NCBI GenBank assembly: GCA_964016885.1
Contig: OZ024742.1
Coordinates: forward strand, 118,544,001-118,608,000
Direction: 5' to 3'
Origin: Eledone cirrhosa
Lineage: Eukaryota
Length of the DNA: 64,000 nucleotides
Shown: one piece after another, positions 19,074 to 64,000 of the stretch
Numbering within the stretch: position 1 is the first letter of the stretch
How the letters are laid out: every line of letters begins with the position of its first letter
Position numbers and translations under genes: made by a program
The notes under the pieces: model-generated
What the model was told of the DNA's origin: nothing
What the model saw: the letters and a program-made list of their open reading frames with translations, nothing else
The model's database searches: none

Positions 19074-21859
19074 TGACATTTGGAAAGAAGAAAGTGTAAG
19101 AGACGTGCTAGATTGTAAAGAGAAGAAGAAAGCGAGCAAGAATTTAGAACATTAAATTATGTAAGAGGTGGAATGTCCGGCAAAATATTTTTAAATAACG
19201 AAATAATTAAATGAAAAAAAAACATTGGATGCAAATATTGGTGGTACGGTAACTGTGTATGGTTATCATTACTTCATTGAATCAATGAGCAACTAATTGG
19301 TTATGTTCTTTAAATGTGTTGGGTTAATATACAAATATTTTTTTTTTATATAATTTCAGAAGATTTCTTTAAGATATTTTCTTTAAAATACAGTTTCAAA
19401 ATTATAATCCTTTTCTATAATATAGTTTTAGAAATATAATTTTAAAAAATTACAATTTTTTAATATATAATCTTAAGATTAAATTCGTTTTCTGTAACAT
19501 ATTTATCTCTATCATGGAATATAATTACGATATATTTGGGGTTTTAAACTTGCTGAAAATTGATTTAAAATTATCTATTGAACCATGGTAGGGGTAGCAT
19601 GGGACATGGGGGGAGTAAATATAGCAGAACTATTATTTCTGGTTTGTTTTGAGGAGACTAAGTTTCGCTGGCAGATAATTTTGACAATGACTACATAATG
19701 CTAATAGATTTTTTAACGATCCGTTTATAAAACTGGGTATAACTATTTTAAAAATTATATTATTATATGGTTAAATGAGTAGTTTTATTTGAATAATTTT
19801 GAAAATATTAAAAAGTACAATTCTGTAATGGATCGGGAATAGCAATCCGAAATTATTTTGTTTGAAAGCAGCCAGCATAAAAGCCAAAATAAATTGTAAC
19901 GATGTCTTTTTTTATTCAATATAACCTCACCCACTATTCCACGATAAAGAAATACATGAAATATCTTAAAGAAAACATTTATAATCTTATTATATAATTT
20001 AAATCTTATTTTGTAAAGCTATATTTTTGAGAAAATACTTTTAATATATTATACTTAGGTATATCCTAATGTTTGTTGAGTGAGATGGAGTTGGTCAGAG
20101 TATCGCTTAAGGCTTTCTCTGTTAATGTATTAAATATATATAAATAAACATTGATTAATGACTAAAATATATTTTTTTTATATTTTGAAGAACGCAATCA
20201 ATTACTTACACATGAAGTAAACTTTTAGATTCATAAGTAGCCATAGAGTTACTGCTGAATAATCAATATTTCCGTCTAGACCAGCCGATACCCTGCTCTT
20301 CTTTTTAAAAATGATTTCAATTGGTTTGTCCCATTTGGTAAGATTGGCATTTCGACAAAATTGGCTGGTCACCCCACCTTTACATGAAAGAATGTTCTAA
20401 ACCTGCCACCCCTTGCTCACTTTATTAGTCTTTCAACAACCTGATGGCCTCTCCTCCCTCTCTCTACAACCTATATTTCTCCTACGATATCCTCCCACAC
20501 ACTCAATTCCATATCCTCTCAATAACTACTTTTCCCTAACTCACTATTAACTATATAAGCAATATTTTGCCAACTCCGTTCAATATCCTTTCCTAGAATT
20601 GTAAAAGACGAAACATGCTAAATGGTATTCAGAAATTTATTTAGTGTTATATCATATTTACTATACTATACATAACCACGTACACACATGTACGTGCGTT
20701 CATTCTCCTCAACATCTATTGTGTAGTGCACGTCGGACTTTTTTTCACATCATGCTGGAGCCGCCGTTAAAATTGTAATTAAATGAGTTCAAATCCTGCC
20801 GAGGTTAACTTTGCCTTTCATCCTTACGGGGTGGATAAAATAAAGTACCAGTAATACACTGGGATAATTGCTGGCCTTGTGCCAAACGTAGAAACAATTA
20901 TATTCCTACTCATGGACGGTGGATTGGCAGAATCGGTAGAGGGTCGGACGCCATGCTTTGCAGCATAGAGTTACGGTCCTTTACGGTTTGAGTTCAAATC
21001 CCGCCGAAATTAACTTTGCCTTTCATCCTTACAGGGATGATAAAATAAAAGTACCAGTAATGTACTGAAATAATTGCTGGCCTTGTACCAAAAGTAGAAA
21101 AAATTATATTCCTACTCATGACGGAAACATGGATTTACCAGACCGCTTTCAAATGTCATTTTATTACATTAAATGTCATTTTATTTTCCCCACGAAGAGA
21201 AATAATTAATTTGAATAAATCGCGATCGAAGCACTATTTATGCAAATCGAACTAACCATTGGTTTCAGTAATTAGACAGTGGCTATACCCAATTTTTCAT
21301 ATCTAGAACTTATTTCATCGATCTCGTTTTGTCAAAACACTAAATTATGGGACATACGCACGCGCGTGCATGTATATATATATATATCTATAGATAGATA
21401 GATATAGATATATAACAGGCTTCTGCAGTTTCCGTCTACCGAATTTCACTCACGAGCCTTTAATATAAGGCACTTGCCTTAGATGTCACGCAATGAGATT
21501 GAACCCAAAGCCATGTTGTTGCGAATTGAAACGAGATTTGAAACCGATCAGGTATATCCATTCAGTGTGTCGGCGGGGAGAAAAAAAAGAATGTTGGTTT
21601 GTAGTAGTTATATTACAACGACAGCTCCAGTGTGCTGTGAAAGAAATTTAAAACTGACAATGGGTTCATTGTCAGTTTTTAATTTCTTTCGTAGCACACC
21701 AAAATTAATTAATATGAATAAATCACCAACGAAACCCTTCTGACTGGGATATGTGGAGGTCATTGGTTGATGGCTTTAAAGAAAAGGGAATTCTTTAAAA
21801 ACGTCATTGTGTATAAAACTACGCATATGTAGTATAACCTTATATATATATATAGAATC

Positions 21860-25547: not shown

Positions 25548-28500
25548 TTCTTCTGGTTTTATAATTTCACAAATTTTTTCCCAATAGAGAGAGAGTCGGT
25601 TTCTAACATAGACACAAGACTCTCTCATTGGAATTTACACAACATCAACTAGGTAGATATGTATGTATACATGCATGTGTAGATATGGATGTTATTGTAT
25701 GCGTGGATGTGGATGTTTTGAGTCGTATGTGCGCATGTGTATATGCTTTGTATCTGTAGATGTGTATATGCAGTTATTAGATGCAACATTTTTGGAATGT
25801 TTTACATATTTTTACTGTTCCATTAATGGATTGTACTTGTAATTTCCTAACTAGTTGTGTTCTTTCTGTTTCTGTGAAGCCTAGCTTCTCAAGATTTGTA
25901 TTGAGGCAGTTACTAACATACCCCAGTGCCCCAATAATCACAGGCATAAATCTGAAGGTGTAATCAGGGTGGAGTATCTGCAGATTTCTCATCAGTTCTG
26001 CATAAATATTCTCCTTTTCGCTAATCTTTGATATTATATTGGCATCTGCTGGGCAGCTAATTTCCACTACTGTGCATGCTTTCTTCTCCCTGTCCCATAT
26101 AATAATATCTGTTCTGTTATGCCTGCATTTTATTGGGGTTTTTACTGGAACATTCCACCAGTACTCTTTCATATTATGTACATGGGTGTCTTCCACATTG
26201 CTGTAGCTTTTAATGTGTTTATTATCGGGGCTATCTTTTTTACGAACTGCATTGTACAGTGTTTGGGCCACTACATCATGCCTCATAGGTAGATAGTACC
26301 GCGATGACATCTTTGGAAAGCTGCTGATGCAGAGTCTGCACTTGTTATCACATCTAGGTGTTTTGCCTGCATCCCTATCTCTTTTGTGAATGAGGTATTT
26401 CGTGTTAATCTCCTGTTCTTGGATTGCAAAAGCGTATCCTTCAAAGTGGGAGCCAATATAACGGTTGTTGGTCCAAGATAGACTACTTTCCTTATCTATA
26501 TTACTCTCACTCTGGAGCTTTCTGGCAATATATCCAGGCATGATGATTTTTTGCTGATAAGCATGCAGTTTTTCATCCATTGATTCTCTGCGATACTGCT
26601 GGGCGACTTCCCTGGGTGTGAGTTTTTGATTATCACACAGGGAATATCTCTCGGGGAGTTCCTTCCCAACTCTCATGATCTTATCTGTTTCATGCAGATA
26701 GACTTGCTCGAGAAACGGGCTCCTACGCTCCGAGGTTCGTAGATGTTGTCGGAGAGATAGGATGCGACATTCAAATGCTGTCTGGACTGATGTTAGGCCT
26801 CTGCCTCCCTGCTTACGTTTCAAGTAAAGGCGGTCTATGTCACTGTTGGTGTGGAAGTTCCGGTGTTGTTTAGTATTTTTCGAGTTCCAACATCAACTGC
26901 TCGGATTTCGTCTATCGTCCAACTGAGTATTCCAAACGTTGGTGTTAGGACAAGCACAGCAAATACATTGTGAGCCACTGTTTTGTTTTGCGCAGAGAGT
27001 TTCCGATGACCAAATCTTTCTTAATCGGGTGTAGTATTCCCTGGTTACGCGTTCCTTATTACAGATACCATTATAGGATATGTTCTCATCTATCCCCAGG
27101 TATCTGTAGCACTCCTCATCAGATATCGGTGAAACAGTTAGGCCATTGATGACAATGTTGCTAGATTGGGTTGTTTTTCCCCGCTTTACAGTCATGTATG
27201 AGCATTTATCTTGGCCAAACTCCATTCCTATATCCTTTAAGAAGTTGTAACCAGGTCAAGATTTTTCTTCATCCCATCCGTGTTCTTGGCATAGAGGTTC
27301 ACATCGTCCACAAAGAAATTATGGGTTAGGTTCGTATTTCTGTCCTCCTGTGAGCCAATGATGTATCCCTCGCATTTCTTGAGCAGAAAGGACAAGGGGT
27401 TTAATGACAAGATGAATAATATCACACAGAGACTGTCCCCCTGAAATATACCCCTGCGATATTTTATTTTATCAGTGAAAATAGAGTCCTCCCTCTCTGT
27501 CTTTAACCTTAAGATAGTAGCCCAAGAAGAAGACAGCCTCTCTATGGCCCTGACAATAATGTCTGGGACTTTAGCAAGTTGGAGGGCCTCTATCATCCAA
27601 GAGTGGGGAACAGAATCGAAAGCTTTCCTGTAGTCCAGCCAGACTGTAGCCATATTCTTCCTAAGTTGTCGCTCCTCCAACATCGCAGTTTTGTTGATTA
27701 GGAGTTGTTCAGCACATCCGACATCGCAGTTTTGTTGATTAGGAGTTGTTCAGCACATCCCCAAACCCCTTTCTTTCCAGCTGCTTGTTCATCTGTGATG
27801 ATGTTATTATTTTCACAGTGATCTTGGAAGAATAGGTTCAGGCAGGCTGTATACATCTTATACATCAGGTTTTGGCATGCAATGGGTCGGTATATTTTTT
27901 GCCAAGTGGGTGTCTTTGTTCTTGGGGACCAGTAATGTTTGTGCTAATGTCAACCATTCTGGTATAAGTGTATCTCCCTTAAGAACTTGTTGGTAGAGGT
28001 CAGTAAGATACCTCCGATAGAATATCAGTTTTTTTTACCAGTAGCCGACAATCATGTCTCTTCCTCGTGTTTTCTTATCTTGGAGTTTTCCTATCACAGT
28101 CTCAAAGGTACACTTACTTATTTCGTATGTTTTTGTTGTAGTGTAGGAGCAATAGTTCTTTCGGATTTCTCTTAGCCACACTGCATCTTGATTGAAATTC
28201 TTCTTTCTGGGATGGAGCCTCAGTGACACTTATTATTTTGTTCTTCATATCTCTATAGACTGATGTTTGGTTCCATCTGAATCTTTTATTAAGCACTTTT
28301 CTCTCATCTAACTTCTTCAGGTATCGGCGTTTTTCACTAACAGCTCTCAATTCTTGTTTGAGGGTGATCAGCTTATATTGAAGAGTTCTGGTTCTACTGT
28401 TACCAAACATCGTCTCTATTTTATTTTTCACTCTTTGTTGGTGAGGAGTGAGTTTTTTTTTTGTTTGTTTGCATGTAAGGAACATTGTCACATATCCTCT

Positions 28501-29587
28501 GGTTTTTCGTAGGTCAGCAATCTTTTTTTCTATTTTAGTTATATATGATGGTATTTTTGGTGGTGTTCTGTTCTTATTAATATCTCTGCTGTCACCAAGA
28601 TAATGCTTCACTGTCGTTGCTAAGGCATATAAACAGGCGTTGATTAGCCAAAATGTTGGGGTTTTTATCCGTCGTAAATATTCATCCCCTATTTCGTCAA
28701 TAACACGTAATATTTCATTATTTGGTTTTTTATTAAACATTGTCGTTTTAATACGTTCAGCAAGAGAGATATTTAATTTCTCTTTGGAAGATTTCGTTGA
28801 GGGAAAATTTCAATTGTTTATACTTTTGATTATTATCATTATCGATAGTATTTTCCACAACAATCGAGGTAGACTCGGATGGTACATGTGGTGTCAAATT
28901 TCTTCGATTATTATTATTATCGATAGTGTTTTCCCCAGCATTCGAGGTAGACTTAGATGGTACAGGTGGTGTCAAGTTTCTTACAGGCATAGTTGTTTCC
29001 AGACGCTGTTCGACCTGGCTGCTAGGAAGTCTAGTACCATGGCGACCTGTAGCATGTGTTGTTGATCCCATGTTTGTTGTGGGGGACTTACAATTAATAC
29101 TATTGTTGGCGTAATTGTTTCGCTGTGAAATAATTTAGCTCTGGGTGCATTTCGTCCCAGTGTAGCTTCATTCTATTCATATAGCCAATGGATGGATTGT
29201 TTTTGCCATTTTATAACAATTAAATAAATCATTATTAAGTTCGCAACTCCAAGAGAAATGCGATTTATAATTTCGGTTTCTTCTGTAGCTACAACTGAAT
29301 AAAGTTTGTTTACCTTTCTTGTTGGTTGTCTTCGATACTTCCTTAATTGTGTTATTGATGTTGTGTTCAGCCATGCTGTTTGTAGCAAATCCTTGTAAAA
29401 TGAATAAGGTATTTAGTCGGATATCTCTACGAATTCGAATAAAAGGTGTCTTCAGAAGATTATAACCAGTTATTCAACATGTTATTCAACATGACTGTAG
29501 TTGTGGCATTACTGTCGGAGATAGTAGTCATCTTAAATTTAATAAATAGTCTCCCACGCCAAAATATGCGACTGATCGCGTTGACTG
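25548..29587 (-). mobile_element. Decayed near-full-length non-LTR retrotransposon with RT and restriction-like endonuclease (R4/Dong-like)
   Basis: Frameshifted ORF pieces 28114-28740, 27237-27683 (WLDYRKAFDSVPH, GIFQGDSL, FFVDD), 26893-27225 and 25777-26823 (CRLC, RHD, HNRTDIIIWD, VVEISCP); bounded on both sides by (TATG)n. Confidence 0.9.
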
Positions 29588-29637: not shown

Positions 29638-30150
29638 TGAGGTCGCTCTTGAGTACTGCTGGTAACATGTAACCCAGTACAAACTGTCTCATGGTCGGGT
29701 CGTCGGCGACTAAACCAGCAACCCCACCAAGCTTGCTTGGTGAGGAGGGTGATATTGGACACCCTGCGGGATGAAATACTAGACCCGGAGAAGCGCGGAG
29801 GAACTCAGCAGAGTCAACGGCCATCAAAATAGTACTTTTTTAAAAACACTGGGAGTGAAAGCCACCCCAACACCTTTCTAAGAGAGAGAAACTCTGAAAA
29901 AAAACCTGCGGCTTCGGAAGCATCCGATGATGTTGACCAGTTCTCCTTTTCAGGTTGTGTTTTCGTAGCTCAGAGAGTGGGATTGGTCGAGTGCAAGTCT
30001 TTTCACCACTTAAAAAACCTTCAAAGCACAGGCATTGCTTGTCCAGGATATGTTACATGTTCGTGTGGCTGGCCGTAGCCTAAAAGTGCACCAGTTTCTG
30101 TAATCTGACAAGCGATTGCAATACTCTTAGCAGAGTTTGCAGCCATCATT
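29638..30150 (+). mobile_element. Non-coding ~0.5-0.6 kb retro-like element associated with (TATG)n
   Basis: Collinear with 62938->62332(-); partial copies at 25215-25498(+), 52640-52825(+), 57780-57843(+), 60951-61365(-) and 61641-62055(-). Most copies with a 3' end finish in GCAGCCACCAT/GCAGCCATCAT followed by (TATG)n. Confidence 0.7.
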
Positions 30151-30498
30151 ATGTATGTATGAGATAACCTAGGGCAAACGAAAGACTAACCCCGGCGGAT
30201 AGAATGTCTGAACATCATCATCATATAAAAGAGACCAGTACAAGACAAATGCCCGTTACGGAACATTTAGACTTATCTGCAAATAATAAACCCCTAAAGT
30301 ATTATATACCAATGTGCTGACAAAACTACAAATAAAATATAGACAAATAGAGAAAATATACATATTAAGTAATACAAACTAAGACTAGTATTATATGATA
30401 GAATGAAACAAGTGGCTACAACAACCAATCAATATGATACAGTCAGCAACAGCTGTAAAACACTACGATGTATGGCACAAAGCTGCTATTTTACGTTA

Positions 30499-31451: not shown

Positions 31452-31666
31452 CCCTCCCACCACTTGCGACTGCTAGACTAAAAGACAGCCGAGAAAATAT
31501 ACTTTTCTCGTCTGTGTAAATGGGGTGATTAATCTCATTTGCATATGATGCTGCATAAGTTGGCTCACCTTATAAAAAAGAAATGGATAGACTATCCAGG
31601 AAGCTCCAACCATTAAGGTTGTCTTTTTTTTCGGGTATGTCAATATTTATTTATAAAATAAATCTG

Positions 31667-31732
31667 TATTTTATCTGATGAAAGCGCACCATAATTTGCC
31701 TTGGTTGCCCTTGAAATATATATAATAAAATA
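31667..31732 (+). ncRNA. Type I hammerhead ribozyme (family A)
   Basis: UAUUUUAU-CUGAUGA-AAGCGCACCA..UGGUUGCCCUU-GAAA-UAUAUA-UA-AUAAAAUA. Confidence 0.8.
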
Positions 31733-31763
31733 AATATGGTTTTATAAATATAATTTCCATTTA

Positions 31764-33960
<2,197 letters not shown>

Positions 33961-34004
33961 TAATATATATATATATATATATATATAAGTTTTAATATAG
34001 ATGA

Positions 34005-34053
34005 GATTCTACAGGACTAGAACTGTTTCATTCTTGAGAAATCATCAGGAATC
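34005..34053 (-). ncRNA. Type I hammerhead ribozyme
   Basis: GAUUC-CUGAUGA-UUUCUCAAGAAU-GAAA-CAG uucuaguc CUG-UA-GAAUC: GUA cleavage triplet; first pair of stem II is a U-U mismatch. Confidence 0.75.
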
Positions 34054-34178
34054 ATGATTTCTCAAGAATGAAACAGTTCTCGTCCTGTAGAATCTCATCT
34101 ATATTAAAACTTTTATACTCTGCTATGTATTGAGTACCTTACTGTGGTTACCTCCGATTCAACCCGGAATAACTTACC

Positions 34179-34209
<31 letters not shown>

Positions 34210-34239
34210 AGATCAAAAGATGGTTAAAAGAGTTCCATG

Positions 34240-34310
34240 TATTTTATTATGCGCATTTCAAAAACAAATATCATCATGCAATAACATTTGTGTTTTCATC
34301 AGATAAAATA
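34240..34310 (-). ncRNA. Type I hammerhead ribozyme (family A-related); inverted copy with a 4-nt insertion at 34397-34471 (+)
   Basis: UAUUUUAU-CUGAUGA-AAACACAAAUGUUAU..AUGAUAUUUGUUUUU-GAAA-UGCGCA-UA-AUAAAAUA. Confidence 0.8.
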
Positions 34311-34603
34311 GGGAGACATGATATGAAGGTTAAAAAACACTTGTGAATAGTGCAGTTTTAAATCAAGTGTTTTTTAACCTTCATATCATGTCTTCCTATT
34401 TTATCTGATGAAAACACAAATGTTATTGCATGATGATATTTGTTTTTGAAATGCGCATACATAATAAAATACATGGAACTCTTTTAACCATCTTTTGATC
34501 TTATATATTATGTATAGTCCTGTCCTACAAACTGTAGAGTGCTTCTTATCCGATATCTGCATTGCTTTATTGTACTACAATAAAACTCACCTCCTACACA
34601 TAT

Positions 34604-34649
<46 letters not shown>

Positions 34650-34725
34650 CATAGATATATACATGCATATATAAATACCCCTATCGCTCACAATCGAGCA
34701 TGACATGGAAGTATGTACCATGCTT

Positions 34726-42975: not shown

Positions 42976-43103
42976 GACATACATACATACATACATAAAT
43001 ACATACATACATACATAAATACATACATACATACATACATACATACATACATACATACATACATACATACATACATACATACATACATACATACATACAT
43101 ACA

Positions 43104-43776
43104 ATCAAAAGAGGAGGGCCATCAGTTGACGATAAATGTAGGCTATGTAAAACAAAGATCGAAGATGTTAGACACATTGTTGCCAACTGTGAAAGAATGT
43201 CATCTCGTTACTACCTCCCTATGAGACACGATGGGATAGCTAGAACCATCTGGAACGCACTTAGGAAAACAAAATTAAAAACAGATGAGGAGGAATATGT
43301 TGAGACAGATGGCACTAAGGAATACTGGTGGTACCTGAAAATAAAAACTGCCACCAAATTAAAGCACAACCGGCCTGATATTGTTGTTTGGGACCACTCA
43401 TTGAAAACGTGCTCTGTTGTAGAGATCAGCTGCGCATTTGATGTCAACGTTGTAAGAAAAATACAAGAGAAGGAGGACATCTACGGACCATTGATGAGGA
43501 GTTTGCAGATCCAGTATCTAAGATACACCTTCAGCTTCATACCCATCATTATTAGAGCTACAGTTTATATTCCAACCCGCTTGGACCAAAGTATGACTGA
43601 ACTTGGACAAAGAGCGCAGCTCCCTAATTCATAGACTACAAATGGCTGCGATAGCTGGCTCTTTCAAAATTTCCAAAACATCCTTGCGATTCAAGGGATG
43701 ACAATTTCTTTTCTTTAACAACCTTGCCACGAGGAAGGAGGCCGGTCAAAAATGTACTCGAAATTAAGAGTAAGAG

Positions 43777-46002: not shown

Positions 46003-46394
46003 TATAGTTTGTTTTCGCTCTTAACGTGGTGGATAGCTAAGTGTGTGTATATATATATGAAAAGAATCAGGGCCCCGGCCGTTTCGATAGCTAGATCCGA
46101 ACTCAGCCGTCGGGGTCTTGATTCTTTTCATATTACCCACTCTACAACCCCAAGTATCGAGTACTCTGGTTGATTATAGTCCACCTGGTATTTTACCACA
46201 CTCTATCTGATATATATATATACACATATATATATATATATGTATATGTATATATGTATGTATGTATATGTATGTATGTATGTATGTATATATATGTGTA
46301 TATATCAGATAGGGTGTGGTAAAATACCAGGTGGACTATATATATATACACAATGATATTAAAAAAATGGAAAATATATTTATAAAACCATATT

Positions 46395-46456
46395 TATTCT
46401 ATTATATATATTTCAAGGGTACCAAAAACTTTGGTACGCTTTCATCAGATAAAATA
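46395..46456 (-). ncRNA. Type I hammerhead ribozyme (family A); inverted copy with mutated core CUGAUAA at 46717-46778 (+)
   Basis: UAUUUUAU-CUGAUGA-AAGCGUACCAAA guu UUUGGUACCCUU-GAAA-UAUAUA-UA-AUAGAAUA. Confidence 0.82.
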
Positions 46457-47225
46457 CAAAGTGTGTTTTATAAATTTTGACATAGCCAAGGAAACATACC
46501 TTATCAGTTGAATTTTCCTTGGAAAATTTGACATAGCCAAGGAAACATACCTTATCAGTTGAATTTTCCAAGGAAAATTCAACTGATAAGGTATGTTTTC
46601 CAAGGAAAATTCAACTGATAAGGTATGTTTCCTTGGCTATGTCAAATTTTCCAAGGAAAATTCAACTGATAAGGTATGTTTCCTTGGCTATGTCAAAATT
46701 TATAAAACACACTTTGTATTTTATCTGATAAAAGCGTACCAAAGTTTTTGGTATCCTTGAAATATATATAATAGAATAAATATGGTTTTATAAATATAGT
46801 TTCCATTTATTTAATATCATTGAATATTTACTCCAGAAATCTGTCGAGTGCTCTGAATCAGTTATAAACATTTATATTTGTTGAATTTCCAACAAATTAA
46901 ATATCCCTTCTACTTATATATATATAAGTAGAAGGGATAGACATACTTACTAACCTACCTACAAACACACACATGCACACACATGCATACACACACACAT
47001 ACGCACACATATATATGAAACAGCACCGAATTTCATTGGATGATCGGGAAGGTCTTCACGATAAATAGATTAGTTACATAACTAACAATAAAACCGATAT
47101 GAAAACAACTGGTGTGTATGCTTTTATTGGCAGCATAACCCTCTCAAAGTATAACAATATATATATAATGCACTGAAGTACCAAAACGCATGCCTACAAA
47201 CAAATACACAGAAACGAATGCACAC

Positions 47226-48569: not shown

Positions 48570-49500
48570 CAGGATAGAATCAGTTCAAAACTAGTTAGTC
48601 CATTACTCAACAGAGTACTCGATACTTGGGGTAGTAGAGTACAGCTAAATCATAAATAGTCGGGATCCGACGGTTGTGCTCCAGTCCGGAACTAGCTATG
48701 TATATAAATATGTATATTTCGGGTCCCGAAAGCCGTCGGAGTCCGGAAATTTCCATATTACCCACTCTACTACCCCAAGTATCGAGTACTCTGGTGAATA
48801 ATAGTCTAACTGACTTCTACCACTTCCATTTCGATATCAATAACGAATTATTGTAAAGATTCTAATTATTAAAGAACATCAACCACTCGTGATGCCATTC
48901 TTCCCCTTTTTTCAAATATATATATGTGTATATATATATATATTCAAATATATATATATACATGTGTATATATATATGTTATCATCATCATCATTTCACG
49001 CCGGCTTTTTCCCTGCTTGCAAGGGTGGGACGGGAACTGATTCTGGCTTGATTTCTACAGCTGGATGCCCTTCCTAGCACCAACCTCATTTACAGTGAGT
49101 GCTGGGTGCTTTTTTGCCGTGGCACCTCCACGACCACTTTGCAGTGGAATGATAGGGACCCCAGTCCCTATCATCTCATTTCTACAGCTGAGTAAACTGG
49201 AGCAATGTGAAATAAAGTGTCTTGCTCACGGAAACAACACATCACCCGGTCTGATATATATATATATGGAGAACGATCGACTTTCGTCAAATTGGACCGA
49301 GGGAACAATGTTTCCGTTGGTCTTTCCAATTGCTAATACTATCTATCGGTCGCAACTCCAGGTAGAAGGAGCAACGTGAAATAAAGTGTCTTGCTCAAGG
49401 ACATAACGCATCGCCTGGTCCAGGAATCGAACTCACAACCTTACGATTGCGAATCCAATTCTCTAACCACTCAGCCACACGCCTTCATATATATATATAT

Positions 49501-50165: not shown

Positions 50166-50267
50166 TTGCGAGTGAAATTGGATCTCATCTATATTAAAAC
50201 TTTTATACTCTGCTATGTATTGAGTACTTACTTACTGTGGTTACCTCCGATTCAACTCGGAATAACT

Positions 50268-50336
<69 letters not shown>

Positions 50337-56690: not shown

Positions 56691-56725
<35 letters not shown>

Positions 56726-56900
56726 AACGAGTAGGACCCCGACGGCTGAGCTCAAGCCGTTTCGGCCGCTAATTCTCAGCCGTCGGGGTCCTACTCGTTC
56801 CTATTACCCACTCTACTACCCTAAGTATTGAGTACTTTGGTGCGTTATGGTCCATCTGGTTCCTTACCACATTTCCTTCGTTATATATATGTTTTAGGTA

Positions 56901-57783: not shown

Positions 57784-58247
57784 GTTCTCCTACATGGATA
57801 TAAAGTAGTGGCCGTACTCGAAAACGAGTTGGCAGCCACCACCATATATATATATATATATAATAGTATATTTTAGAGTGAAATGACAGGGAGGCCGGAC
57901 AGATTGAATTCTTTCAAATATTTATTTCTGTAAATACTATCCACATATCAGTGGCCATGTTATATAGTAATAATAATAAATTTGAAGACTAAAATCCAAA
58001 GAGGGCTCGATAAGGATAAATATATATCAGATATATAAGAACAGTAGAGCAAATATTAAACTGTTATTTTAATAAATATATATATTTTAATTATGTCTCA
58101 TCTAAAATAATACAACTGGCTATCCGCAAAATACGTATAGTTAGCACCCTAAACGTATAATTGGGATTATACTAAGGTATATCCTAATGTTTGTTGAGTG
58201 AGACGGAAGCCGGTCGGAGTATTGCTTAAAGCTTTCTCTGTTAATGT

Positions 58248-58301
<54 letters not shown>

Positions 58302-58455
58302 CATTAACGGAGAAAGCTATTAGCGATACTCCGACCAAATTCCAACTCACTCAACAAACATTAGGAAATACCGGAGTATATTTCCAATTAAACGTTTGGG
58401 GTGCTAACTATATTGTATTGTGTGGATAATTGGCTGTATTATTTTATATGATATA

Positions 58456-58511
<56 letters not shown>

Positions 58512-63147: not shown

Positions 63148-63924
63148 TGTCCCAAAAAAGATTTATACACACTTTGACTACCTGTACAGGCAATATTTAT
63201 TAGAATGCTGTTGAAGTGTGTATTTGAGAAACCTTGTGTGTGTGTGGTCGTTTGGTGTAGTAATACTACTACACCAAACGACCAGCCCTGTCCATTGTTC
63301 AATTGGTCAAATATAGATTAAAATAGGCACTCCCAAAAATTATTATTTAGATAAAATAATCCATATACTCATTGTATTCTCATTAAAAACCTTCTATATA
63401 CTTGTTTACCAGCAAATTGAATTGCCATCTGTCATATACTATCCCCTCTCTTCTTCCTTTCTTACAACTAATATAAATACTTCAATTTTTCTGAATTTTT
63501 CCAATTTATCCAATATCTCTGAAGAAGTGACAACTGATTATACATTTGCTATCGAATACTTGCTAACATTATATGATTACGCAAGCAGCGATACATAGGT
63601 ATTCCGTCTGTTACAGAAACACATGTCAATACCTAATAAATTCCTTTATAAAAGCACTTTCATTTTATATTCATCTTTTCTACATTTTCTCCGGAATATA
63701 ATTTATACTCGTTGAGCAAACCTACACGTACGCAGTTCATCTCTAACGTGACGATATATTATATTGATAACCTGGAATTTTTATATATATATATGTAAAA
63801 GTTCTATTTAAATTGTTGGGATACAACAAGCAAATATTTTTATAACTGATATAAAGCACTCAACAAATAATTGGAGTAAAAATACGATATTAACAAATGG
63901 AAACTGTATTTATAAAACCATATT

Positions 63925-63989
63925 TATTTCATTATACATATTTCAAGGACACCAAGTTAAATTATGGTGTGCTTTCATCAGATAAAATA
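63925..63989 (-). ncRNA. Type I hammerhead ribozyme (family A)
   Basis: UAUUUUAU-CUGAUGA-AAGCACACCA..UGGUGUCCUU-GAAA-UAUGUA-UA-AUGAAAUA. Confidence 0.8.
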
Positions 63990-64000
63990 TAACATAGAGC

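Follow-up and report, generated by a model that had tools for sequence, protein, structure and literature searches.

Six inverted-arm elements in a 64,000-nt window of the Eledone cirrhosa genome (positions 118,544,001-118,608,000 of OZ024742.1, in a 3.0-Gb genome) are head-to-head insertions of five PLE families, four of the Hydra type and one of the Neptune type. All six have the layout (TA)n - inverted arm - arm - tail - (TA)n. The arms are joined head to head with their 3' ends facing outward in (TA)n, and one arm stops at a short end (S), the other at a long end (L). S comes 5-9 nt ahead of a bulged hairpin, and the arm that ends at L extends 63-96 nt beyond S. The elements are probably truncated insertions of autonomous PLEs, each consisting of an S arm and an L arm, in which both target strands would have primed on the same uncleaved RNA and been extended to its likely 5' start. 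The inverted-arm structures had been described in an initial annotation made from the letters of the window, and a check of the sequence found all six present and correctly placed. The elements and related arms are listed below.

31591..31767, plus strand: lone short-ended arm of a second family D subfamily, beginning at the 5' stop of that subfamily; hammerhead at 31670-31722
31864-33959: whole element P, with GIY-YIG (PF01541) at 33353-33850
31864..33852, minus strand: short-ended arm of family P (Neptune-type PLE), comprising a 5'-truncated GIY-YIG end, 3' UTR, promoter region, hammerhead, and S in (TA)n
31939..31976, minus strand: type I hammerhead motif of family P, U3-A8 core variant with palindromic loop 3
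32038..32044, minus strand: TATA box of family P, 30 nt upstream of the fixed 5' stop (32014), the putative transcript start
33353..33850, minus strand: remnant of a GIY-YIG endonuclease, CxxxCxxC linker present; identity to the 149 best matches elsewhere in the genome 97-99%
33853..33959, plus strand: long-ended arm of family P, 43 nt of arm plus a 63-nt tail (the parent 5' UTR), ending at L; family P's own hairpin form at 33905-33925
33989..34053, minus strand: short-ended arm of element A (Hydra-type family A), reaching 1 nt below the putative start; complete hammerhead core at 34010-34053
34054..34178, plus strand: long-ended arm of element A, bulged hairpin at 34117-34135, tail to L
34201..34366, minus strand: short-ended arm of element B, S at 34210 with TA microhomology to 34201; hammerhead at 34248-34307
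34364..34597, plus strand: long-ended arm of element B, hammerhead at 34400-34459 followed by a private 4-nt insertion; damaged hairpin at 34516-34540
46059..46209, plus strand: element C (a family E subfamily), short-ended inverted arm and long-ended arm with hairpin at 46139-46162; only the 3' half of the hammerhead is kept
46351..46914, plus strand: element D (Hydra-type family D), short-ended inverted arm with hammerhead at 46405-46453 (minus strand) and long-ended arm with hairpin at 46830-46849
50182..50276, plus strand: lone long-ended arm of family A, hairpin at 50207-50225
56724..56881, plus strand: element E (Hydra-type family E), short-ended inverted arm and long-ended arm with hairpin at 56810-56833; half a hammerhead
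63794..63996, minus strand: long-ended arm of family D, hammerhead at 63935-63986, cut by the window end

In elements A, C, D and E the gap from S to the hairpin is 6, 9, 7 and 8 nt, respectively, in keeping with the initial claim that the antisense arm ends 3-10 nt 5' of the hairpin. Element P has 9 nt between S and its own, different hairpin. Element B had been credited with a variant hairpin lying further in; what is present is the ordinary hairpin in its usual position, in damaged form, and minus-mate reads of other animals (read set X21) carry the family letters at 34517 (1319/1320) and 34521 (1317/1320). Of the two sites said to flank the hairpin, S indeed adjoins it, whereas L is located 33-61 nt beyond. 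The lone arm ending at about 31767, thought to stop near the S position, does so and is a short-ended arm of family D; it begins with a 7-bp fold-back (31584-31598). Arm-to-arm identity is 93-95% in elements A, B and D and approximately 83% in E, and these elements are hence not read fold-backs.

Each of the five families is represented by thousands to tens of thousands of arms in the genome. Since a DNA search with the E tail skips common words, exact family patterns were used, yielding 33,767 matches for the E hairpin (28-nt pattern), 28,019 for the E arm, 17,196 for A, 24,649 for D, 4,393 for B and 7,600 for P. The reversed control patterns for E, A, D, B and P gave no genome match, and the E hairpin matches are therefore not due to chance. 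Arms were analyzed in a sample of 1.68 Mb in 248 merged stretches, chosen by family patterns rather than at random and mostly from one contig (C1).

The parents have the properties of EN+ PLEs. They encode an RT with a C-terminal GIY-YIG nuclease, and partial tandem (pLTR) as well as inverted 5'-truncated copies are found. The tail is the sequence that follows the upstream pLTR, and in A, B, D and P it continues through the 5' UTR to the ORF; among the sampled stretches no family E parent with a tail run-on was found. In tandem copies the tail thus corresponds to the 5' UTR, 30-90 nt before the first ATG. By sequence, a type I hammerhead motif is present in the pLTR. TA-like letters (1-8 nt) come after S and also after L in the parent, and a TA primer could therefore pair there.

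Many open 775-aa RT-EN frames with 97-99% identity are found in family P, and many of the best 149 genomic matches to the nuclease remnant of element P lie in such frames. Against Pfam, the frame scored 27.1 bits for RVT_1 (below the 29.6 cut-off) and 28.1 for GIY-YIG (above 22.6). Its placement in the Neptune clade is based on the motifs GxKF, DKG, a CX2-5CxxC linker and CCHH in the nuclease. The frame contains GLKF, DKG, a CxxxCxxC linker and CCHH-type nuclease residues, which together with the microsatellite target are shared with Neptune clade PLEs; the upstream ORF sets family P apart from them. In the parents of A, B, D and E, the RT motif YRDD and nuclease motifs were recognized by eye. 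The A, B and D frames show RW(R/I), DKT and a CxCx5C linker and no CCHH; the E frames show RT and linker only. None of three B/D parent frames tested had a Pfam match. For the Hydra-type parents, BLASTP against P gave 24% identity over the RT core (E=8e-6), and protein atlas neighbours of the Hydra-type parents carry GIY-YIG/RVT_1 (0.95-0.97). Judged by these motifs, A, B, D and E belong to the Hydra clade as defined in section 11 of PMC8557442.

The upstream ORF of family P spans 400 aa and starts 30 nt after L, overlapping the 775-aa RT-EN frame by about 90 nt in the -1 frame in 7/7 copies (loci L114, L116, L117, L119, L121, L124 and L125). The first Met of the RT-EN frame is at 162, and slippery-type A and T runs lie in the overlap with the 400-aa ORF, making this Neptune-type element a candidate for programmed frameshifting. 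The genome also contains other PLE families, whose nuclease ends are Penelope/Poseidon-like (loci L321, L330 and L314).

Breakpoints had been suggested to be keyed to fixed places on the family copies rather than random, and the sampled arms bear this out. The sample contained 785 arms that extend 15 nt or more upstream of S. S is the end point of 388 of these and L that of 334, another 12 continue into the 5' UTR, and 51 stop elsewhere, so that 734 fall into the first three classes. A TA run was present within the next 12 nt for 355 of 388 S ends and 352 of 377 L ends. Automatic pairing recovered 292 head-to-head pairs, of which 31 with an unclassed end were excluded from the S/L count; it missed window elements C and D and made six false D pairs from an internal hairpin. 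The remaining 261 cleanly classed pairs comprised 256 S+L, 3 L+L and 2 S+S, one of the latter at a locus edge and the other inside a compound insertion. When stretches ascertained by the tail were excluded, 228/232 pairs were S+L (p=1.7e-62 against one half). An independent set of coordinate lists, from another 13-Mb interval outside the sample, contained 12 family P pairs, all of them S+L. Genome-wide, family P has 2,961 short and 4,674 tail-type ends, and chance S+L pairing would therefore be about 48%. The proposal of two fixed sites used on opposite strands of the (TA)n target is thus upheld, and two RT start sites bounding the tail have been described in vitro for a lizard PLE (PMC11167929). 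The orientation of the element is a matter of chance (140 S-left, 116 L-left among the 256 pairs).

A third fixed point, absent from the initial annotation, was found at the element centre. It is a stop 60-190 nt upstream of S, where both arms usually end. For A, P, E and B the distance to S is 66, 147, 58-62 and 162 nt, respectively. Near-symmetric pairs account for 120/256, and arm lengths cluster, mostly at 55-65 nt in A, 50-60 in E, 133-151 in P, 151-162 in B and 170-187 in D. Arm 5' ends in the 15 nt below versus above the stop numbered 66 vs 0 in A, 42 vs 4 in P, 137 vs 20 in E and 20 vs 6 in B, in bins that were placed after seeing the data. Unpaired arms also stop at this point, and palindrome decay is therefore not its cause. 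Family D splits into subfamilies with different stops. In raw reads of three other animals from one study, depth along a natural A copy rises at the stop (more than 10-fold in X21), is halved at S and is gone at L. Raw reads of three other animals also contain TA-run loose ends at S and L as well as strand-switch joints at the centre.

The two arms of a pair share their fate at the 5' stop. Both pass it in 40 pairs and both stop in 195, with 5+5 discordant (p=8.5e-35; 11/256 pairs that were not aligned are excluded); 8.3 both-pass pairs were expected, and three of the discordant pairs are alignment errors. In family E, the subfamily tag agreed between the arms in 38 of 39 scorable pairs among 62 (10.7 expected), and arms sharing a tag were nonetheless not identical. 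Such concordance is also expected from one active source per cell, or from gene conversion. Taken together, shared arm fate and shared subfamily tags point indirectly to one RNA primed twice.

We propose that the GIY-YIG nuclease of the element would nick both strands of (TA)n and that TA primer ends would base-pair with the short TA motifs of both sites, the bulged hairpin immediately 3' of S possibly positioning the protein. A single uncleaved RNA would be primed at S by one end and at L by the other, with both copies running toward its 5' end; the L-primed copy would have to displace or halt at the S-primed copy. The stop would represent the transcript start, and host end-joining would seal the centre head to head. 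About four fifths of the pairs would use the signal near the RNA 5' end and yield promoter-less, dead stumps, and about one sixth a signal with continuous upstream sequence (read-through, tandem or circular RNA), giving long copies. In vitro, a PLE was found to nick both strands and to extend them, starting at two sites of an RNA that had not been cleaved, and the protein is predicted to be a dimer (PMC11167929). However, in these experiments the start sites of the lizard element did not differ between strands and lacked homology, which counts against the proposal (PMC11167929).

In a wider form, which we hold to be possible though on balance doubtful, PLE integration in general would be obligate two-site twin priming on one RNA, aimed by a 5' UTR signal. 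A promoter-started transcript would then yield strong-stop palindromes, and long, promoter-rebuilding copies would arise only from read-through or hammerhead-circularised RNA. According to PMC2377424, pLTR regeneration has no obvious mechanism, and the formation of tandem and inverted structures and the microsatellite bias are listed as unexplained in PMC8557442. If the wider form is true, two-site priming would explain how pLTRs, inverted ends and the one-sided tail arise in the various PLE clades, and target-primed strong-stop palindromes would map the transcript start of the element tens of thousands of times.

Self-priming with nuclease resolution has been put forward for such structures (PMC3846280; PMC8557442). 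Here, this would mean one priming at L, with the cDNA folding back at the RNA 5' end, being copied as the second strand and being cut or joined at S. S+L exclusivity, shared tags, shared fate and the 120 symmetric centres would all be explained, and S lies in TA-like sequence resembling the target. However, a fold-back could not give rise to an S arm extending beyond the 5' end of its L partner, and this is seen in 69/256 pairs (48+21), element P included; the L arm reaches further in 44. Moreover, in 56 of the 120 symmetric centres the arms are 0-2 nt apart, which leaves too little room for a snap-back loop, 107 S arms have no partner found (some are missed pairs), and both sites are primer-extension starts in vitro (PMC11167929). 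We therefore regard a fold-back as unlikely.

Another alternative, in which an asymmetric protein dimer would copy two RNAs, with S as the starting site of one subunit and L as that of its partner, appears improbable. A dimer is predicted (PMC11167929), strand displacement would be unnecessary, and tags could match if one source locus dominated the cell. Nevertheless, the arms pass or stop together far more often than independent templates would, and family E has L arms beginning right at S. These number 10/131 (-4..+7), compared with 3 and 0 in the neighbouring bins; another seven L arms of family E begin at the 3' foot of the hairpin. L ends are piled at S in E only, A, B and D having 1, 2 and 1.

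The third fixed stop is likely the transcript start, as judged from the letters around it. A TATA box is found exactly 30 nt upstream of the stop in the five commonest variants of A and of P long arms, and TATTTAA 29 nt upstream in some E; at -30 of the stop, no TATA was present in B or D. In B, the stop coincides with a TA-like word capable of pairing with the target, which weighs against a start. No clear cap-derived extra G was seen at the 5' stop, the preceding base usually being explained by the partner arm or TA run. The transcript of fly Penelope starts inside the pLTR (PMC2377424). There is little probability that the fixed centre reflects RT stalling at folded RNA or a splice acceptor instead. 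In A, a pyrimidine run and CAG do precede the stop on the 5' edge of hammerhead helix I, the place at which the intron of fly Penelope ends (PMC4209133), and B and D are without a TATA box. However, the junctions hold no conserved upstream-exon sequence, and the arms include the AG itself. P has no pyrimidine tract and its TATA is at exactly 30 nt. Furthermore, the position of the stop relative to the hammerhead varies, being inside it in E, at its edge in A and 40-90 nt upstream in P, B and D.

The short elements had initially been taken for non-coding mini-elements mobilised in trans. Uniform size within a family and very high copy number would suit MITE- or retrozyme-like units copied whole from few masters, and non-autonomous PLE derivatives exist (bioRxiv 10.64898/2026.07.22.740005; PMC8557442). 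Yet the centres are nearly all distinct (29/30, 14/14, 7/7, 71/75 and 25/25 copies; 146/151 near-symmetric pairs in total), whereas a unit element would have one structure inherited from its master. Stump lengths grade into full ORF-bearing copies, and parents with ORFs exist in every family. The arms bear tags of more than one source subfamily, and the stumps, which start downstream of the TATA box, lack it. Nor do the window elements consist of head-to-tail tandem units with a full hammerhead, as non-LTR retrozymes do; they are inverted pairs. The unit reading is thereby largely refuted and very improbable. Junctions that are almost all unique, and ORF-bearing parents in every family, indicate by-products, and the stumps are best read as dead by-products rather than units that spread.

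A search for imprecise 5'-to-3' RNA jumps gave 8 candidates in 262 arms, seven being microsatellite noise and one a 45-nt local duplication, so that LTR-like strand transfer has no direct support here; shared arm fate argues against independent jumps. Assembly or library fold-back artefacts can practically be dismissed: palindromes beside microsatellites are hard to assemble and short-read libraries can make fold-backs, but there are 1.5-2.7 differences between the arms per 40-60 nt, fixed and unequal ends are not expected of artefacts, and reads of three other animals reproduce both the ends and the centre.

In L1 twin priming, the second target strand primes a second cDNA on the same RNA and the two are joined head to head. 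The second site of L1 is variable and yields a non-overlapping upstream copy, whereas here it is fixed and the same stretch is copied, resulting in a palindrome. Inverted ends, a one-sided tail and two start sites are already known from the literature, and the families are real and abundant new members of known PLE clades with known architecture. PLEs with an inverted pLTR and a one-sided tail, as described in PMC3846280 and PMC8557442, share the head-to-head 5'-truncated copies, palindromic junctions and microsatellite targets. In those accounts the tails are 30-40 nt, compared with 63-96 nt here, and here the rule has been counted (256/261), most insertions are stumps, 140-430 nt in length and with a fixed centre, and the self-priming proposed there is disfavoured. 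Poseidon of Anolis, in the in vitro work of PMC11167929, likewise has two internal RT starts bounding a tail near the RNA 5' end, nicks and extends both strands and uses an uncleaved RNA template. Its tail is in the ORF and its starts are non-homologous and without strand preference, in contrast to the 5' UTR tail and the 1-8 nt TA-like match here. In addition, the two sites are used here once each per insertion, and the clades differ. A single ORF, the hammerhead and (TA)n targets are features that A, B, D and E share with Hydra clade PLEs as portrayed in PMC8557442, generally under 3 kb there and about 3.7 kb in B and D; the shared bulged hairpin and the abundance of stumps are not mentioned in that account of the clade. 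Non-LTR retrozymes have in common with the stumps that they are short non-coding hammerhead sequences from pLTRs, and differ in being head-to-tail tandem units rather than inverted pairs with unique junctions (bioRxiv 10.64898/2026.07.22.740005; see also PMC7229834). In Schistosoma, paired hammerheads on opposite strands lie 100-700 bp apart (PMC4209133).

A literature search returned no paper on the strict pairing, shared fate or fixed stop, which older subscription papers and repeat-database entries may describe. Three countable rules, observed in two distant clades, bind any PLE model: one short and one long end, shared arm fate and a fixed 5' stop. Family P is young and has many open RT-EN frames, and the rules are therefore directly testable in an existing in vitro assay. 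Furthermore, stumps are numerous, and annotation tools see them as MITEs or miRNA hairpins.

The bulged hairpin has the form ACUC-3 bp-loop-3 bp-2 nt-GAGU in 238/299 Hydra-family tails. Its inner stem is paired in 218, with a sequence that differs per family, and in none once the bulge is removed; the conserved form was found in 0/90 cases in family P. Folding energies are unremarkable compared with shuffles (z -0.1 to -2.1), and by minimum energy C and E fold a different hairpin. By eye, a second hairpin followed by a 10-12-nt pyrimidine-rich strand was seen before L in B, D, E and P.

Type I hammerhead cores are located 17-75 nt upstream of S. Cores with paired helix I numbered 72, 51, 119, 20 and 127 pattern hits in A, B, D, E and P, respectively, with C3-G8 in A, B and D and U3-A8 in E and P. 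The description of the short elements as hammerhead-bearing applies to roughly half to two thirds of the short pairs in A (18/35), B (16/25), D (17/24) and P (22/34), which have a full core, and fails for the family of C and E (0/99); the stumps of the commonest family thus carry only half a hammerhead. Rfam gave no hammerhead at gathering score in the window and none at E<=10 in 31500-34700, where only sub-threshold miRNA-like hairpins were reported. Hammerhead-cut RNA was considered as the template and rejected: L-arm ends show no excess within 3 nt of the cut in any family (1, 1, 0, 6 and 2, with similar neighbouring bins), matching the uncleaved template described in vitro (PMC11167929). 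The U3-A8 core in E and P (15/20 and 127/127) is like that in the Schistosoma Cercyon report. In family E, the putative start and TATA are inside hammerhead helix II. At locus L332 (1495-1573, family A), a head-to-tail 76-78-nt unit spans the whole hammerhead (reads, three animals), and the family A pattern is strand-skewed (9,671 vs 7,525); this tandem is likely a retrozyme-like satellite.

Several further structures were observed. Compound insertions at loci L120 and L313 contain recurring units with the same junction and a TA run between them. The centre of element D (46470-46710) is a series of ~55-nt repeats taken from the 5' stop and present in both orientations, as if the template had been switched again and again. 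Short inverted duplicates of the outer end of an element, arranged tail to tail beyond the TA run, are present at 46175-46340, 46902-46939 and locus L083, perhaps reflecting a self-complementary TA end folding back. At 48593-48811 there is an older head-to-head pair with tails on both sides, two different E-like subfamilies and a TA-rich centre; it probably represents two neighbouring insertions. Palindromes at 58072-58480 and 21630-21699, one with a central TA run, match none of the five families. Outside these structures, the window contains a sodium:neurotransmitter symporter gene exon (PF00209; 17955-18452, minus strand), a broken non-LTR RT element (25777-28809, minus strand) with a fragment resembling it at 42999-43634 (plus strand), and a decayed GIY-YIG remnant at 30132-30387 (plus strand).
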